Below, one piece after another: positions 5,308-44,001 of a DNA stretch of 64,000 nt (its first letter is position 1; each line of letters opens with the position of its first letter). This DNA comes from Ostreococcus lucimarinus (lineage: Eukaryota): the NCBI GenBank assembly GCA_000092065.1, contig CP000596.1. One strand, written 5' to 3'. A model generated the notes under the pieces. The model had not been told where the DNA came from. It was given only the letters and a program-made list of their open reading frames with translations, and did not search any database. The position numbers and the translations under genes are program-made.

Positions 5308-5585
5308 CGCGCCGCGCCGCGACCTGCCGTCCCGGTCGCCCGGGCATCCATCCATCCATCCATCCGTCCGCGCCCGTCGCGAAGAAACGTGCACGTGGAT
5401 TCGACGCGTCGCGCGCGCCGGCGTCGCGCGATCCACCGCACCGCGCTTTAACTCCCGCGTCGTCGATATTTTTTTTTTCTAGCGCGACGTCGACGGCGGC
5501 GACGCGACGATCGCCGCCGACGCGTCGCGCGCGCGGACGCGCGTCGACGCGACCGCGATCGATCGCGTGCGGCGTAAAAATCGCG

Positions 5586-6182
5586 ATGACGTCGCGGTCG
5601 CGCGCGCGCGAACGACGACGCGCGCGCGCTCGAGCGCGGCGAGTCGCGGTTATTTTTCGCGCGCGTCGTCGTCGCGCGTCCGCGCGCGCGTCGTCGTTCG
5701 CGCGCGCGTCGTTCGCGACGCGCGCGAATCGAATCGTCGCGCGGCACATCGCGCCGATGCCGATGATGACGTGTCCGACGACGACGACGCGTCCGACGAC
5801 GACGCGGGCGAGCGCGCGACGCGCGACGCGGGCGAACGCGCGACGCGCGACGACGACGACGACGACGCGCGCCGTCGCGCGCGACGACGACGACGCGCGC
5901 GAGGAACGGTCGACGCGACGCGCGATCGTGATGATGACGGCGACGATGCTGGCGACGGCGGCGACGACGCGCGACGACGCGCTGGCGTACGGCACGGGCG
6001 GGTGGAAGGATTGCGAACCGATATGCGATTCGCTGAAGAACGGACGCGCGGAGCAGTTGGCGATGCAGGAGGAGATGATGCGGTCGATGGGGCGGGACGC
6101 GAGCGCGAGCGCGAGCGAGGGCGAGAGCAAGCGAGAGCGCGAGCGGCGGGCGGAGCGCGAACGCGCGAGGGGAGGGAAGTGA
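5586..6182 (+). CDS. low-complexity hypothetical ORF (uncertain)
   Basis: 198-aa ORF in an extremely GC-rich, repetitive segment. The N-terminus is R/A/T-rich and the C-terminus is more complex (..GGWKDCEPICDSLKNGRAEQLAMQEEMMRS..). A TGTAA lies ~50 bp downstream at ~6233. Overlapping ORFs in other frames are equally plausible. Confidence 0.15.
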   Translation: MTSRSRARERRRARARARRVAVIFRARRRRASARASSFARASFATRANRIVARHIAPMPMMTCPTTTTRPTTTRASARRATRANARRATTTTTTRAVARDDDDAREERSTRRAIVMMTATMLATAATTRDDALAYGTGGWKDCEPICDSLKNGRAEQLAMQEEMMRSMGRDASASASEGESKRERERRAERERARGGK

Positions 6183-38020: not shown

Positions 38021-38138
38021 TCGGGTATGGTCATCAGTGAGACGTTTTTTAATAAAAATGTCCGAAAAGTGGGTGTGGCGATCAGTGAGGAGGTATAAAT
38101 GACAAAGTTACGATTGATAGGGTTAAAAAAAGATAATG

Positions 38139-38415
38139 TGCAACCACCGGGAATCGAACCCGGGTCTGGTTATTAGGAGAAAATCGACGTTAACTATGGG
38201 TCAGTTTCCATTTTCCATTTATATCCTTTCGAGCTGTTTATCGAGCTTTTCGGACGGAACACTCACCTCCTGCGCGCTGCTATTTTGTATGCAGTGACGG
38301 CTGTTCGCCGTCAGGAGACCATCTCGCCCGAGCTCGACCTCGGGCGACGACTGGATCATACGCTGCTGAAAGTGCCGATTGGCAGGCAGGTATTCTACCA
38401 CTAGACCATGGTTGC
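38139..38415 (-). tRNA. trnG-GCC: tRNA-Gly(GCC) gene interrupted by two ~100-nt introns
   Basis: Minus-strand exons GCAACCATGGTCTAGTGGTAGAATACCTGCCTGCCAA (38415..38379) + GCAGG(AG) (~38273..38267) + (AG)ACCCGGGTTCGATTCCCGGTGGTTGCA (~38167..38139) assemble a 71-nt cloverleaf. It is near-identical in architecture to plant tRNA-Gly-GCC: acceptor GCAACCA/TGGTTGC, anticodon stem CCTGC/GCAGG, loop CTGCCAA, T-arm CCGGG-TTCGATT-CCCGG. Confidence 0.65.
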
Positions 38416-38600
38416 CTAGGTCTTCCGCACGCTTGACTACGTGCTTCGGATGTTAGGAACAGCGATAAACTTCAAGTCGGAGAATGCGAACGTCAATGCG
38501 ATCGCGGTGTTACGGGTTGGTGGTAATTACGAAATCATTGATTTCGTAGTAATAATAGCAAAATTCTGGACTAACTATTGTGATTCATCTCTTCATCGGC

Positions 38601-38624
38601 CTAAATACACAGAAAACAAAACGA
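38601..38624 (+). repeat. 24-bp direct repeat copy 1 (ctaaatacacagaaaacaaaacga)
   Basis: Exact 24-mer also present at 41306..41329. Lies 60 bp upstream of the ATG at 38684. Confidence 0.8.
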
Positions 38625-38683
38625 ACCGGGTGCGCTCGGTGAAGTCGGACCGCCGATTGGTTGGTTGGTTGGTTGGCCGCGCG

Positions 38684-39064
38684 ATGAGATTAGTTGTCGG
38701 CGCGCGCGTGGACGGATGGACGGACGGACGGAGAGACGCGCCCTTCGCGATGGGTCGACCGTACGCGTGGAGACGCGGCGCCGGCGCGAGCGCGCGACGA
38801 CGAAAGCGCGGCGACGGCGACGACGACGACGACGAGCCCGGACCGGTGATGCGTCGGTTCACCGAACTCGCGCGCGCGCATCGATCGGCGGAGATGGTTC
38901 GAGCGGCGGCGGCGGTGGCGGCGGCGGCGAACGCGACGAGCGACGAACGCGAAGAGACGCGGCGCGTGCGCGTCGAGCGGACGCCGAACGGCGAAAGCGT
39001 CGTCGTCATGGACGACGCGAAGGAAGGCGATGATGGTGACGACACGGCGGCGAAGAAGACGTAG
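38684..39064 (+). CDS. hypothetical small acidic protein
   Basis: 126-aa ORF from ATG 38684 (MRLVVGARVDGWTDGRRDAPF..), D/E-rich. No family recognised. Confidence 0.3.
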   Translation: MRLVVGARVDGWTDGRRDAPFAMGRPYAWRRGAGASARRRKRGDGDDDDDEPGPVMRRFTELARAHRSAEMVRAAAAVAAAANATSDEREETRRVRVERTPNGESVVVMDDAKEGDDGDDTAAKKT

Positions 39065-39130
39065 AGCGAGGTCTCGGACGACGATCGATCGAACGCCGGC
39101 TGCTGAAAAACGTTCGCCGCGCGACGCGAA

Positions 39131-39186
39131 ATGATTCATTCATTCATACATACATTCATTCATACATTCATACATTCATAACGAAC
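39131..39186 (+). repeat. (CATT/CATA)n microsatellite, TTCATTCAT-type
   Basis: gattcattcattcatacatacattcattcatacattcatacattcataacg read directly, ~70 bp 3' of the stop at 39064. Confidence 0.85.
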
Positions 39187-39276
39187 AAAACGCACAAAAT
39201 TGTTGTTATAACAAGGACAACGTGATTAGATAAATTAATTATGTAGGACATCAACGTTCAACGTTCTTTAACTCTG

Positions 39277-41190
39277 TCACGCCGCCGTCGGCGTCGACGA
39301 CGTCGACGCCGCGGTGAGCGCGGCTTCGACTTGCTCGCGAAGTTCTGCTGCCTCTTCGGCGCTGCGACCGTACTTAACCTTCATCTGCCAGGTGATGGCT
39401 TTGCCGCACCGCTCGACGCTCTCGCCCTGATCCCAGAGCTGCATCGCTCGGGCGACTGCTTTCTTTTGCGCCTCGAAGAGCTCCGGATCCGTCGGATTGG
39501 CGTCGGCCTCGACCTGCGCTTCAGTGTAACGAGTGCAAATGTCGTGACTGTACGCGGCGACGGTGGACGAAATACCTGTTGGATCGAACAGCGCCGCGAC
39601 TTCGGCGGCGGCTCTGATGCCGTCAGCCTCCGTCTCGACGGACATCATGTCCTCGATGCCCCCGGCGATGCCGTCGGCCGTGCTGACGACCTGATCGATG
39701 TTGTCGTAGGCGTCCTTCAGCTCTTCCGCAGTTTTCTTAACCGCTTTCGCGGTGTCACCGATCTTGTCAGCGGCTTTGGCGCATTTCGTCGCGGTTTTGA
39801 CTCCGATCTTAGCCCCCGTCGTCGCGCCAGAGCTCGCACCGAGCGTGGCGAAGAAGGCAACCATCTCGAGCGGGCCCATGATCTGGTCGGTAACGACCAG
39901 CGCGCACGTGGCGTCGTCGGCGGCGGCACCCATGCCGCATTCGACCCATCGATTAGCGTTCACTGTAGGAGGTTCGCCCCAGCAGACGAACGCCGCGCCG
40001 ACGAATCCCTCTTTGCAAGGCTCGTAGCAGAGGCCGGCGTCGTACTCGTAGCCGGGGGGACAGGTCGCCGGCTCCATGCCTGGGGAGAGGTGAGTGTGTT
40101 TCGTGCAGCTCGGGGCGATGCCGCCCTCGTAACCTTGATCCTGGCAGTCCATCGTGCAAATATTTGATCCAAAGTTGCTGTATCCGCTCCTGCACTTGTC
40201 GTAGCACAGACCGAGGTAGTCCTCCTTGCCTTTTTTAGTGCAAAGATCTCCGCCACACCGCACACTGAACGTGGACCAGCTCCATTCGCACTCGATGGTA
40301 CCGACGCCGCGACCGTAACTCGCGTCGGGGTTGGAACATAACAATCCGTGGTCGTCCCAACCGCTCGAGCACGACTGATGACAGTCGTAGCCAAAGCGAT
40401 AATAACCAGCGCCGAAGTTTGAGCACTTGTCGTAGCAATACAAACCACCGGCGATGATTTCTTTTTTGCCATCGTCGCCGCAGTACTGCGGAATGATGCC
40501 GTCGCGCGTGTACGATTCGCGCCAGCAAAATCCCGAGCCTTCGTCGACTTCTTGGGCGTACTCGCCGATGATCTCGCTCGACCAACTAGTGACGGTGCCC
40601 GCGTGTTCGACCACGTTTCCTACCCAGCCGAAATTGAGTCCGAGCGCGGCCGTGTCGTTCGACGCTTTACGGCGTTTGTCGATTTTCTTACGCTTTCGCG
40701 CCGTCTCCTTCTCCCGGTCGCGCGCCTCCGCGACGCGCCTCTCGAGCGCCGCCTGAACCATCGATTCCTTCGACGCGCACGTGCCATTCGTCGCGACGGC
40801 CCTCTCCGCCGCGGTGAGATCGGACAACTCAAAGGTCGACTTTCGCAGCGCGCGCTCCGCCTCCGCTTCGACGTCCGCAGCCTTCGCCGTCATGACGGCG
40901 ATCGTCTCGTTGAGCATCGCCTCTCGCTGCCTCGCGTTCACGGCGGCGCCCAATCGCGCGCGAGGCGTCGGCGTCGGCGTCGGCGTCGCGTCGACCGCGC
41001 GCGCGACGCGCGGCGTCGTTCGCGTCGTCGGAATCGTCGTCGTCGTCGTCGTCCCGCGTCGACCCGCGAGCGCGACGACCGCGCACGCCGCGACGCCGAG
41101 CGCGACGACCGTCGTCGTCCCGGCGTCGACCGCGCGTCGGTCCCGTCGCGATCGTCGCAACAGCGGATCGCGCTCGCCCGGCTTCGACAT
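39277..41190 (-). CDS. novel type-II membrane protein with coiled-coil stalk and three Cys-rich G-L-C-Y-x2-C repeats
   Basis: ATG at 41188-41190 (MSKPGERDPLLRRSRR..), then TM VVALGVAACAVVALAG, a T/P-rich linker and a coiled-coil region. Repeats: GLYCYDKCSNFGAGYYRFGYDCHQSC, GLCYDKCRSGYSNFGSNICTMDC, GLCYEPCKEGFVGAAFVCWGEP. C-terminal K/A/T-rich region. The ORF-track start at 41277 is a GTG. Confidence 0.5.
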   Translation of the reverse strand: MSKPGERDPLLRRSRRDRRAVDAGTTTVVALGVAACAVVALAGRRGTTTTTTIPTTRTTPRVARAVDATPTPTPTPRARLGAAVNARQREAMLNETIAVMTAKAADVEAEAERALRKSTFELSDLTAAERAVATNGTCASKESMVQAALERRVAEARDREKETARKRKKIDKRRKASNDTAALGLNFGWVGNVVEHAGTVTSWSSEIIGEYAQEVDEGSGFCWRESYTRDGIIPQYCGDDGKKEIIAGGLYCYDKCSNFGAGYYRFGYDCHQSCSSGWDDHGLLCSNPDASYGRGVGTIECEWSWSTFSVRCGGDLCTKKGKEDYLGLCYDKCRSGYSNFGSNICTMDCQDQGYEGGIAPSCTKHTHLSPGMEPATCPPGYEYDAGLCYEPCKEGFVGAAFVCWGEPPTVNANRWVECGMGAAADDATCALVVTDQIMGPLEMVAFFATLGASSGATTGAKIGVKTATKCAKAADKIGDTAKAVKKTAEELKDAYDNIDQVVSTADGIAGGIEDMMSVETEADGIRAAAEVAALFDPTGISSTVAAYSHDICTRYTEAQVEADANPTDPELFEAQKKAVARAMQLWDQGESVERCGKAITWQMKVKYGRSAEEAAELREQVEAALTAASTSSTPTAA

Positions 41191-41305
41191 CGCGACGGAC
41201 GGCGTCGCGGGGTGGCGATCCGCGTCACCAGGCGGTCGGGCGGCCAACGGCCGCAGGCTGGACAAAACGCGCGCCACGTTTGTAAGCTCATGGGTCTAAA
41301 TGGTA

Positions 41306-41329
41306 CTAAATACACAGAAAACAAAACGA
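41306..41329 (+). repeat. 24-bp direct repeat copy 2 (ctaaatacacagaaaacaaaacga)
   Basis: Exact match to 38601..38624, in the same + orientation, ~117 bp beyond the minus-strand ATG at 41190. Confidence 0.8.
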
Positions 41330-41397
41330 GGTTGCACACTCGATGCACTCGATGAATGAAATGAATGAACTAGATGAACGCGAAACGATTCACTCAT

Positions 41398-42597
41398 TCA
41401 TTCGCCCCCGACCGCGTCGAAATCGAAATCTACGCCGACGCGCTCGCACGCTCGTCTGAAGTCGTCCGGCACCGGCGCGACGATCCGGGGCACGCCGGCG
41501 AAATCTTTCGCCGGGAAGCGAAGCGTCCACGCGTGCAGCGCGTGCCTGTCGACGACGTCGGCGTCGAGGCAGCCGTACGCGGCGTCGCCGACGATCGGTA
41601 GACCGATCGCGGCCAAGTGGACGCGAATCTGATGCGTGCGTCCGGTCTTCGGGCGACACCGCACGAGGGCGTGTCGGCGATTTCGAGCCACAATCGTCCA
41701 CTCCGTCGACGCCGGTTTGCCGTCGGCGGAGGACGTCTCGACGAAGAACCTCGCGCCGTCGTCGCGCTTCGCCAACGCGAGATCTATCGTCCCGGACGAC
41801 GCTCCGCCTCCCGAAACATCAAATTCATCGCACCGACACAGCGCCAAGTACGTCTTCTCGACCTCGCGACGCTCGAACGCGCCTTGCGCGCGCGCCGCCG
41901 CCTTTGCGTTTTTGCACACCACGAGCGCGCCCGACGTCTCTAAATCCAATCTATGCGCCACGTACGGCACCAAACTCGCCCCGAGCACGACGTTCGACGC
42001 CAACGCGCCGTCGTGCGCGTCGACGAGTCGTCGCCGCCACCGCGCGACGACGAGCGACGCCGCGCTCGAATCCGCCACGCGCGACTCGGGCGTCGACGCC
42101 GTTCCCGCGCGTTTATTCACGCACGTCATCTCCTCGTCCTCGTGCAGTATCTCCAGCGCCTCCACGTCCTCCGTCTCGCACGCCAATCCCATCGGCGTCG
42201 CCTCGACCTCGCGTCGTATCGTTCGCGCGACGCTTTCGGCGTCGACGCGACCGACGCGTCTCGCCACCTCGCTCGCGCGCGTCGTCGCCCCCCGCGCGCC
42301 TCGCGCCCACCCGAACCGCCACGCCATGATCTCGTGCGCTCGAGATCGTTCACCGTGCCTGCGAACGACGCTCGCGCGCAGGATATCGCGCTCGCGCGCC
42401 GCGAACGCGTCGCCGCGCAGCGCGTCCGGCGCGCACAGACTCAGGTGTCGCGTCTTCGCATTCTCCAGCCCGCAGCACGGACACCGCGGTCGCGGCGCGG
42501 CGTCGCGTCGGCGCGTCGCGTCGGCGCGCGTCGTTTCTCGTCGCGCGTCGCGCCGGCGCGGTCGCGTCGCCGCGATCGTCGCGCGACGCGCCGCCAT
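41398..42597 (-). CDS. RluA-family pseudouridine synthase
   Basis: HRLDLETSGALVVCKNAKAA.. catalytic Asp motif and ..KTGRTHQIRVHLAAIGLPIVGD.. The N-terminal region has CPCCG. Start approx. at cat 42595-42597, about 30 bp from the ATG of the divergent downstream gene. Confidence 0.7.
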   Translation of the reverse strand: MAARRATIAATRPRRRDARRETTRADATRRRDAAPRPRCPCCGLENAKTRHLSLCAPDALRGDAFAARERDILRASVVRRHGERSRAHEIMAWRFGWARGARGATTRASEVARRVGRVDAESVARTIRREVEATPMGLACETEDVEALEILHEDEEMTCVNKRAGTASTPESRVADSSAASLVVARWRRRLVDAHDGALASNVVLGASLVPYVAHRLDLETSGALVVCKNAKAAARAQGAFERREVEKTYLALCRCDEFDVSGGGASSGTIDLALAKRDDGARFFVETSSADGKPASTEWTIVARNRRHALVRCRPKTGRTHQIRVHLAAIGLPIVGDAAYGCLDADVVDRHALHAWTLRFPAKDFAGVPRIVAPVPDDFRRACERVGVDFDFDAVGGE

Positions 42598-42627
42598 CCG
42601 ACGGCGCGTCACTTTTTGACGCATTCG

Positions 42628-44001
42628 ATGTCGCAGCGGACGTCGTGCGCGCGCGACGCGCCGGTGAAGCGCGGCGCGCGCCATCGGTGCGCCGCGGCGC
42701 ACCAAACGAAACGCCTCGCGCGGCGCGCGGCGCCGGCGCCGCTGTTCCAGCCGGGATCCGTCGTCGCGCGGTTCGTGGACGCGGCGAAAAATCAAATCGA
42801 TTGGGACCGCGCGGTCGAGTGGGCGAACGGCGCGACGGACGGCGACGGCGACGCGATCGCGAGCAATCCAGCGATCGGGTTGATTCTGGGCGAGGTGAGG
42901 ACGTGCGGCGCGGACGCGGCGGCGCTGCGAGGGACGCGGTCGGGGAGGTACAAGGAGTACGCGCTGCAGCGGACGCTCGGGATGAAGGCGGTGCTGACGC
43001 GAGCGACGACGGAGGCGGGAGTGCTGGACGCGAAGACGCGGTGCGCGATCGGACGAAAGCTGGCGGATCCGTCGAGCGGGGCGTCGCTGTTTCACGCGTA
43101 CGCGAAAAACGCGGACGCGGCGATGGACGCGTTCGTGAGGGGGGTGGAGGAGGATTTGAGAGAAATCGCGGACGGCGACGAGGCGGCGTTGGATTTGGCG
43201 AGAACGAAGAATTTTTACGGCGAACGCGTGACGGAGAGACACTTCGCGTTCGTGAACGAACAACTCGCGAACGCGCTCGCGAAGGCGGACGAATCGCGCG
43301 GGTCGGCGGCGCAAAAAGTGAAGGTGGTTCCGGTGTTGGTGCCGAACACGGACGCGACCGAGGACGAGGAAGAGGACGACGAAAACGCCGACTTCATGTT
43401 TGGTAAAAAGTCAAAAAAGAAGAAGAAGAAGGCCGCCGCCAACGTTTCTGCGGCGAGCGTGGCGTCCATCGCGAGCGAGGTGTCCGCGTCTTCCACGTCG
43501 TTCGTGGACGCGTTGACGAAGATGGTCGCCTCGAAGATGGGTTCGACGAAGGAGCCGGCGTTCCCGGAGATCGAATCGTGGGGTCAAACGACCTCGGCCG
43601 AGGCCTCGGGCGCGGTCGTCGCGCTTCTCGCCGGCGCCCCGAGCGGATCGGTGGTTATTTTACCCAGCGAATTAATGCTTCGAACGCTCACGTTCGACGT
43701 CCCCGCGGGCGACGCCGTAAACTCAAACGGCGCTCGCGCTTTTTGCGTCGATTCGATTCCAGACGACGTCGACGCCGAGTGCGCGCTTTGGGTGTCCTTC
43801 GACCCTAACGACGCCACCGAAGGCGCGTGGCGAGATCCCAAATTCAAGCGCGCGTTCAAAGCGCTCGCGAAAGTTCCCGTCGTCGTCGCGCTCTTATCCC
43901 GCGTCCCGGATGTGCCGAGCGCCGACGAGCTCGTCGCCGCCGCCGCCGCCGCGAGTTCGCGCGCGCACGAACGCTTAAACGCGATCGAGGATGAAGAGTA
44001 A
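42628..44001 (+). CDS. hypothetical conserved-looking protein with K-rich linker
   Basis: 457 aa from ATG ~42628. Mixed-composition domains (..FHAYAKNADAAMDAFVRGVEEDL.. ; ..FMFGKKSKKKKKKAAANVSA.. ; C-terminal ..AWRDPKFKRAFKALAKVPVVVALL..). Family not recognised. Confidence 0.35.
   Translation: MSQRTSCARDAPVKRGARHRCAAAHQTKRLARRAAPAPLFQPGSVVARFVDAAKNQIDWDRAVEWANGATDGDGDAIASNPAIGLILGEVRTCGADAAALRGTRSGRYKEYALQRTLGMKAVLTRATTEAGVLDAKTRCAIGRKLADPSSGASLFHAYAKNADAAMDAFVRGVEEDLREIADGDEAALDLARTKNFYGERVTERHFAFVNEQLANALAKADESRGSAAQKVKVVPVLVPNTDATEDEEEDDENADFMFGKKSKKKKKKAAANVSAASVASIASEVSASSTSFVDALTKMVASKMGSTKEPAFPEIESWGQTTSAEASGAVVALLAGAPSGSVVILPSELMLRTLTFDVPAGDAVNSNGARAFCVDSIPDDVDAECALWVSFDPNDATEGAWRDPKFKRAFKALAKVPVVVALLSRVPDVPSADELVAAAAAASSRAHERLNAIEDEE

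Follow-up and report, generated by a model that had tools for sequence, protein, structure and literature searches.

The furin-like, TNFR and ephrin-receptor-like (GCC2_GCC3) repeats form extracellular rods of short two-stranded, disulfide-pinned beta-hairpins with a recurring C-x2-C-x2-G-[YF] flavour. In another class of described proteins a lectin is combined with an effector, as in the natterin-like DM9/jacalin-aerolysin proteins and the ricin-B- or trefoil-linked pore formers. Among type II membrane proteins, the major histocompatibility complex class II (MHC-II) invariant chain carries an N-terminal acidic dileucine signal, and plant tonoplast transporters are grouped likewise. The gene reported here has points of likeness to each of these systems. 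It occupies positions 39277-41190, minus strand, of a 64,000-nucleotide stretch of Ostreococcus lucimarinus contig CP000596.1 (assembly GCA_000092065.1), hereafter the window, and encodes a membrane-anchored protein of 637 residues. Its residues ~216-555 form a conserved module of ~340 residues, a member of a very large family that has no name and whose carriers include bacteria, green algae and arthropods. The extracellular disulfide-rich repeat protein is a known kind; this module family is undescribed.

The module opens with F-C-W-[KR]-[DE]-S-Y, closes with D-P-T-G-x5-A-A-Y-x3-C and consists of two halves, a rod of cysteine repeats followed by a helical part. The Cys-rich domain (residues 216-432; 39895-40545, minus strand), delimited with the AlphaFold2 model and with hidden Markov model (HMM) matches of the repeat unit, contains 20 Cys, and 20 of the 26 Cys of the protein fall within residues 222-429. 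An initial annotation of the locus had described three cysteine repeats of ~25 residues each, and the G-L-C-Y-x2-C-x2-G-[YF] strings were indeed found at residues 249 (GLYCYDKCSNFGAGYY), 327 (GLCYDKCRSGYSNFG) and 386 (GLCYEPCKEGFVG). An HMM built from the five tandem 42-49-residue units of the bacterial relative P0044 matched residues 291-341 (E 3e-8) and 371-406 (E 8e-14) of the algal protein, with a weak match to residues 231-258 and half-units at 270-285 and 344-363. Since the unit matches at several sites, the results indicate that the three repeats are genuine and mutually homologous, with units of ~65-75 residues and 6-8 Cys (residues 222-290, 291-365 and 366-432) in place of the shorter length first assigned. 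The repeat has the form YGRGVG-x-P-x2-C ... GLCY-x2-C-x2-G[YF]-x-G-x2-3-C, with four Cys in the minimal unit and 6-8 when the half-unit is included.

Nineteen Cys are invariant across the module family, and the algal protein contains all three repeat units with these Cys as well as the sequence W-V-x-C-G-M-G-A-A ... C followed by a small-residue-rich helix (residues 415-462). The closing motif R-x-AAE-x6-DPTG-x5-AAY-x3-C occupies residues 525-552 (DPTG-x5-AAY-x3-C at 536-552) and includes the invariant core columns D327, P328, G330, A337, Y338 and C343; many family members terminate a few residues past its final Cys. The K/A/T-rich stretch at residues ~455-500, previously regarded as a C-terminal region, lies inside the conserved module, which ends at C552. 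Over core positions 7-346, phmmer matched relatives with E values that range between ~1e-41 for bacterial proteins and 1e-254 for the closest allele, and the alignment with relatives extended from residue ~64 through the C-terminal end.

AlphaFold2 modeling of the Cys-rich part alone with 102 sequences returned 11 consecutive two-stranded beta-hairpins at a mean predicted local distance difference test (pLDDT) score of 95.0 and a predicted template modeling (pTM) score of 0.72. According to this model the Cys-rich half is a rod of 11 disulfide-pinned beta-hairpins. When the whole module was modeled with 34 sequences, pLDDT was >90 in the Cys-rich part and 30-65 in the helical part.

Searches of curated resources agreed with the initial annotation that the repeat lies outside known families. 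No Pfam match was obtained at E≤10 for the whole protein, the isolated Cys domain or minimal bacterial and insect members, and the few matches to the helical half were weak and at chance level; a housekeeping family was among the matches looked for, and none was found in Pfam. No NCBIfam model matched the module, the matches being only to fused lectins, and nothing beyond chance matches emerged when PDB sequences were compared with the protein itself and with two profiles. Foldseek against PDB gave no fold match below E=1. Text searches of the literature with the motif and with gene identifiers found no paper on the module, and the names of relatives in the source databases were all "hypothetical" or taken from a fused lectin. 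The Cys-rich half has a very confident model without a detectable neighbor among solved structures.

The modeled hairpin rod and the C-x2-C-x2-G-[YF] flavour are what the module has in common with the furin-like, TNFR and ephrin-receptor-like repeats. It differs from them in matching no Pfam model of these types (PF00020, PF00757, PF07699) at E≤10 and no PDB sequence, in its repeat unit, YGRGVG-x-P-x2-C ... GLCY-x2-C-x2-GY-x-GVGPVCW, and in that the Cys repeat of full members always precedes the specific helical part. Neither did the protein match a Pfam EGF HMM at E≤10 (EGF-like unit, 6 Cys, ~40 residues) or resemble solved EGF domains. A Cys spacing akin to EGF, TNFR or ephrin receptors, which had been suggested, is thus not demonstrable with the HMMs of those families.

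The first element of the helical half is a weakly hydrophobic helix rich in small residues (residues 433-462; 39805-39894, minus strand; DQIMGPLEMVAFFATLGASSGATTGAKIG), recognized by hydropathy and pattern count. The best 19-residue hydropathy in this region was 1.42 at residues 429-447, a span starting four residues inside the Cys-rich part, while the same helix across the family had a median of 1.47 and a maximum of 2.11. The equivalent segment of relatives is 52% G/A/S/T with few charges, and the fourfold small-xxx-small pattern was found in 139 of 176 relatives; the algal protein has a perfect G-x3-G-x3-G-x3-G. A helical region of variable length follows (residues 463-552; 39535-39804, minus strand), predicted as helical by AlphaFold with the pLDDT of 30-65 given above, and then a lineage-specific helical C-terminal tail (residues 553-637; 39280-39534, minus strand) that is conserved in the closest relatives only. 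Structural matches of the helical half to helical pore-forming toxins such as CAMP factor rest on the region of pLDDT 30-65, are no better than those to generic four-helix bundles and have no counterpart in sequence similarity.

The first homology search returned 44 relatives, all labelled hypothetical. A profile of the module was then compared with 1.84 billion cluster representatives (clusters at 50% identity) and matched 3737 at E≤1e-3, 2248 at E≤1e-10 and 876 at E≤1e-30. Prokaryotic genomes, with a single one taken for each species, were scanned as well, and at least 276 bacterial stretches proved to encode a relative; they come from Proteobacteria, Acidobacteriota, Bacteroidota, Desulfobacterota and a cyanobacterium; the groups represented are Burkholderiales, Alphaproteobacteria, Gammaproteobacteria, Acidobacteriota, Saprospiraceae, Flavobacteriales, Syntrophaceae and a Pseudanabaena, and cultured bacteria with the module include Marinobacter caseinilyticus, Rhodoferax sp., Syntrophus buswellii and Hoeflea alexandrii. 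The commonest form in the family is a free secreted module of ~350 residues with neither anchor nor partner. Identity between the alga and bacteria is 35-40% over ~340 residues, which is high for a protein outside the cell.

A second profile search extended the family to proteins of two arthropods, Daphnia pulex and Nilaparvata lugens. The planthopper homologue (346 residues) is 56% identical to an alphaproteobacterial protein, and since its gene spans 6.5 kb (L098:6001-12523) on a 68.8-Mb chromosome it is a real intron-containing animal gene. The planthopper homologue could represent an old transfer from a bacterium to an arthropod; Daphnia pulex has a copy too. The proteins encoded by seven giant-virus or viral contigs consist of the Cys repeat only and have no helical part. 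One from a giant-virus metagenome-assembled genome (MAG) has a C-terminal transmembrane helix (L085:5001-5885), and another, also on a giant-virus MAG contig (L086:346-3054), is 902 residues long and has a hydrophobic segment, PAAFIIAIIAIIL, internal to the protein and within the N-terminal half. With this breadth, 3737 cluster representatives extending over many bacterial phyla and arthropods and the Cys repeat in giant-virus contigs, the earlier suggestion of a candidate lineage-specific protein does not hold.

Among 247 relatives, 118 have a short hydrophobic N-terminus resembling a signal peptide. Open reading frames (ORFs) of 80 bacterial loci were clustered in order to count the neighbors. 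In 21 of these loci the module gene is directly adjoined by a DsbA-like gene (PF01323, CGYC motif) of the same strand, a 22nd has a DsbA-like gene nearby on the opposite strand, and in 8 further loci the same-strand gene adjoining the module gene is thioredoxin-like. No other neighbor recurred in more than 8 of the 80. In Marinobacter caseinilyticus (L058:5063-9842) a dsbA-like gene is followed by a fusion of the module with hemopexin repeats and then by a secretin gene (PF00263), an order that may reflect a dedicated export arrangement; the secretin is downstream in that locus only. Five loci (L005, L013, L018, L020 and L022, at ~5420-5870 in each) have an extra ORF of 126-140 residues between the dsbA-like and module genes which clusters with the module family and may be a mini-paralogue containing part of the repeat.

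The glycan-binding partners found fused to the module are Tectonin, Ricin-B, DM9, F5/8 type C, fascin-like beta-trefoil, hemopexin, bulb-type lectin (B-lectin) and LamG; other partners are PAN, fasciclin, EGF and, in algal paralogues, Kringle. Lectins are found on the N-terminal as well as the C-terminal side of the module, and the Kringle domain of the algal paralogues is C-terminal to it. Since lectins lie on both sides and the disulfide-rich Kringle lies C-terminally, the internal hydrophobic helix cannot be a permanent membrane span, and everything past the N-terminal anchor is on one side, either outside or in a lumen. The family resembles the lectin-plus-effector secreted proteins in combining a constant part with many interchangeable glycan-binding domains at either end. 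It is unlike the pore formers of that class in matching no family model, hence no known pore-forming family was detected, and we know of no lytic activity for the module. The algal copy differs further in having no lectin and in being tethered to the membrane.

The algal coding sequence is complete with 637 codons plus stop, begins with the ATG at 41190 and does not need an intron. The ORF is open for 666 residues counted from a GTG (39277-41277, minus strand); the start codon of relatives is the equivalent of the ATG at 41190, as recognized by the N-terminal pattern MSxxxE..PLL (MSPAGERAPLL, MSTARARESDPLL, MTPRDTERSPLL). A basic cytosolic tail (residues 1-22; 41125-41190, minus strand) contains the acidic dileucine sequence E6-R-D-P-L-L11 at 41158-41175 and precedes a single transmembrane helix (residues 23-43; 41062-41124, minus strand) with the character of a type II signal-anchor. 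The helix has a Kyte-Doolittle 19-residue (KD19) hydropathy of 2.05, and in a hydropathy scan of the 637-residue protein it was the sole segment above 1.6. It is followed by a Thr/Pro-rich linker (residues 44-77; 40960-41061, minus strand) and a charged A/E/R/K-rich stalk with three N-x-[ST] sites (residues 78-215; 40546-40959, minus strand), both assigned by reading of the sequence. The presence of the tail, one transmembrane helix, the T/P linker and an extracellular Cys-rich part bears out the membrane-anchored architecture proposed earlier. A single N-terminal signal-anchor is indicated by hydropathy and, at the level of sequence, by the disulfide-rich and Kringle domains located C-terminally in paralogues, results indicating from sequence that the product is a type II single-pass membrane protein with the N-terminus in the cytosol.

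The stalk is the least conserved of all parts, among relatives as well as among alleles; variable positions per 100 residues among alleles of the gene numbered 9.4 in the stalk, 3.2 in the Cys-rich region and 0.8 in the helical region. The gene is real and under constraint.

Algal-type relatives likewise have a long N-terminal region with a transmembrane segment in place of a signal peptide, and the closest relatives are other anchored algal proteins of the same architecture, neither bacterial nor viral. The pattern [DE]xxxL[LI] was found in the cytosolic tails of 21 of 47 transmembrane-anchored relatives against 0.7 expected from shuffled tails, an enrichment that overstates independence since the sequences are related. 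Another subgroup of the anchored relatives has a YGA[VLI] motif in the tail. [DE]xxxL[LI] and YxxPhi are the two classic clathrin-adaptor sorting signals, and ERDPLL may thus direct endocytic cycling or vacuole/lysosome-like targeting of the protein. The arrangement is that of the MHC-II invariant chain, which also has a short cytosolic tail with [DE]xxxL[LI] near the N-terminus followed by a signal-anchor; neither the invariant chain nor the tonoplast transporters are homologous to the algal protein, and the role of the motif is inferred.

These features are consistent with a module that is displayed at the surface or in endosomes, is targeted to glycans and probably interacts with membranes, a proposed reading to which we assign a probability of roughly 0.4. 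The module would be the constant, working ("effector") half of secreted proteins made of two parts. Bacteria would export it behind the signal-peptide-like N-terminus, often with the DsbA- or thioredoxin-like gene alongside, and the interchangeable glycan-binding domains fused to one end or the other would carry it to the surface of a target. There it would bind the target cell surface and engage the membrane through a helical hairpin, the small-residue helix and the variable helical hairpin being the parts that may point to such engagement. In the alga the lectin would be replaced by the membrane tether and stalk, and ERDPLL would route the protein through clathrin-adaptor sorting, either for cycling at the surface or to a vacuole/lysosome-like lumen. 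The high identity across kingdoms (35-40% between alga and bacterium, 56% between insect and bacterium) suggests that the module acts on something universal.

Several points weigh against this proposal. The hydropathy of the hydrophobic helix is only borderline, and the helix could simply lie buried at the center of a helical bundle; adhesins and carbohydrate-active enzymes are typically fused to lectins too; only 30 of the 80 bacterial loci had a DsbA- or thioredoxin-like neighbor; the dileucine motif is short, with its enrichment counted over related, non-independent sequences; and all functions ascribed to the family are predicted.

The strongest alternative is that the protein is a passive cell-surface receptor for adhesion or recognition, as the initial annotation held, in which the Cys rod would be a ligand scaffold on a stalk and the helical part structural, with no membrane-active step. 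This reading is tentative and nearly as likely as display of a membrane-interacting module, the sole difference being whether the helical half acts on a membrane, and adhesion accordingly stands as one of two comparably supported readings instead of the typical function of the architecture. The type II anchor, T/P linker and stalk fit a receptor, as does the modeled rod of disulfide-pinned beta-hairpins within the module; the partner domains of relatives, including the Kringle of the algal paralogues, are extracellular binding modules; the giant-virus Cys-repeat protein with a C-terminal transmembrane helix is like a surface protein; and endocytosed receptors commonly have adaptor motifs. However, conservation across kingdoms is unusually high for a binding scaffold, and the commonest form in the family is the free module of ~350 residues that has no anchor and no partner. 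Furthermore, the binding domains are the added lectins, suggesting that the module itself is not the determinant of specificity.

A second alternative, that the gene is an accessory, strain-specific cassette of foreign or mobile origin recently acquired from a virus or bacterium, is unlikely; it concerns the history of the locus and is compatible with the membrane-active and adhesion readings alike. The initial annotation had placed the gene in a unit bounded by repeats, and such a unit is real. An exact 24-nucleotide repeat (CTAAATACACAGAAAACAAAACGA; 41306-41329, plus strand) lies 116-139 nucleotides upstream of the ATG, with a second copy at 38601-38624 (two matches versus zero expected by chance), although the informative boundaries are a pair of 22-nucleotide direct repeats. 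The left copy (GCGAAATGATTCATTCATTCAT; 39126-39147, plus strand) is followed by an (ATTCAT/ACAT)n run to 39179 and the right copy (GCGAAACGATTCACTCATTCAT; 41380-41401, plus strand) is identical to it at 20 of 22 positions. The two delimit a presence/absence segment of 2254 bp (39148-41401) that contains only the gene and its 5' and 3' flanks.

A metagenome scan with the 24-mer retrieved six contigs, all from the same locus in close relatives. Three contigs with 97-99% identity (L092, L094 and L095) span the segment and carry the gene with the frame intact in each, while a fourth (L096, 99% identical) follows the window collinearly on the right-hand side and enters the gene only as far as 41146, the first 15 codons. 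In L093 (90-96% identical) the sequence up to window position 39173 joins that from 41401 directly with one 22-nucleotide copy, and the gene region between is missing, from which we infer that at least one close relative can dispense with the gene at this locus. The last of the six, L097, is a further rearranged allele of the locus. The 24-mer was rejected as the end of a mobile element, since the similarity extends for only ~35 nucleotides, the metagenome occurrences are at this locus only and it lies off the indel boundary.

In favor of a foreign cassette are the presence/absence segment between direct repeats, the unrelated genomic contexts of relatives at 53-77% identity, the low-GC insertions on either side of the gene in L094 and the Cys repeat of giant-virus contigs. 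Conserved synteny was looked for and not found: around the relatives whose aligned protein is 77%, 60% and 53% identical, the neighbors are entirely different. Opposed to a recent acquisition are the GC content of the gene (0.636) and that at third codon positions (GC3, 0.77), both typical of the genes of the window, and on this point the earlier suggestion is not upheld. No transposase, integrase or terminal inverted repeat was found in the segment, where the gene is the sole one, and the flanks had nothing in common with those of loci L001, L003 and L004 beyond microsatellites. Since the 22-nucleotide repeat belongs to an ATTCAT-type microsatellite, slippage or recombination is favored, and a deletion of this kind in L093 fits equally. 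Moreover, the nearest relatives are the anchored algal proteins of the same architecture.

A spurious ORF or decaying pseudogene, as might be suspected in GC-rich DNA where many long ORFs arise and are visible around the gene, is effectively refuted by the 19 Cys kept in hundreds of homologues, the intact frame in three other contigs and allelic variation that avoids the module.

More than 3700 clusters at 50% identity thus carry a module for which no curated model, solved structure or paper was found, and the confident model of the Cys-rich part is a structural starting point. Its DsbA-like gene neighbors and its promiscuous fusion to lectins speak for a module that works outside the cell and is directed at the surface of a target. 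In O. lucimarinus, an alga that is an ecologically dominant marine picoeukaryote, the gene specifies a strain-variable, putative surface or endosomal protein at a structurally unstable locus, and such genes are expected to matter for recognition of viruses or partners. In the most far-reaching form of the proposal, which is improbable on present data, the module would be a structurally new, DsbA-dependent, membrane-active device (pore-forming or fusogenic) of bacteria, algae and arthropods, which the alga tethers to its own membrane. In view of the presence or absence of the gene among close strains and of the Cys repeat in giant viruses, it could then be a determinant of virus-host or cell-cell (gamete) membrane interaction.

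Further features of the locus were noted. In L094 low-GC insertions of 1.65 and 6.4 kb flank the gene on both sides (L094:3037-4686 and L094:6992-13447, GC 0.48-0.52), corresponding to window positions ~41354/41377 and 38138-39029; they mark the locus as a likely hot spot of insertion by foreign or selfish DNA. Their ORFs of 531 and 975 residues have no Pfam match, and the larger is rich in CxxC...RWY zinc-finger-like repeats. The 125 nucleotides at 41252-41376 upstream of the gene, which hold the 24-mer, are found in L097 (2094-2688) just upstream of a copy of a small ORF, so that the upstream region of the gene looks like a duplicated promoter region of the small ORF (window counterpart 38590-38624). 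At 38684-39064 (plus strand) the window has a convergent ORF of 126 residues, rich in Arg and acidic residues, with no Pfam match and ~94% DNA identity in L093. A tRNA-like gene at 38130-38420 (minus strand) is apparently split by an insert of ~200 nucleotides into a 5' half (GGCAACCATGGTCTAGTGGTAGAATACCTGCC) and a 3' half (CCAGACCCGGGTTCGATTCCCGGTGGTTGCA) followed by a T-run; it was called by neither ARAGORN nor Rfam, and the insert differs between strains (L092 and L093 versus the window). The upstream neighbor at 41401-42684 (minus strand) encodes an RluA-type pseudouridine synthase (PF00849, E 2.9e-27), the stop codon of which abuts the right direct repeat.

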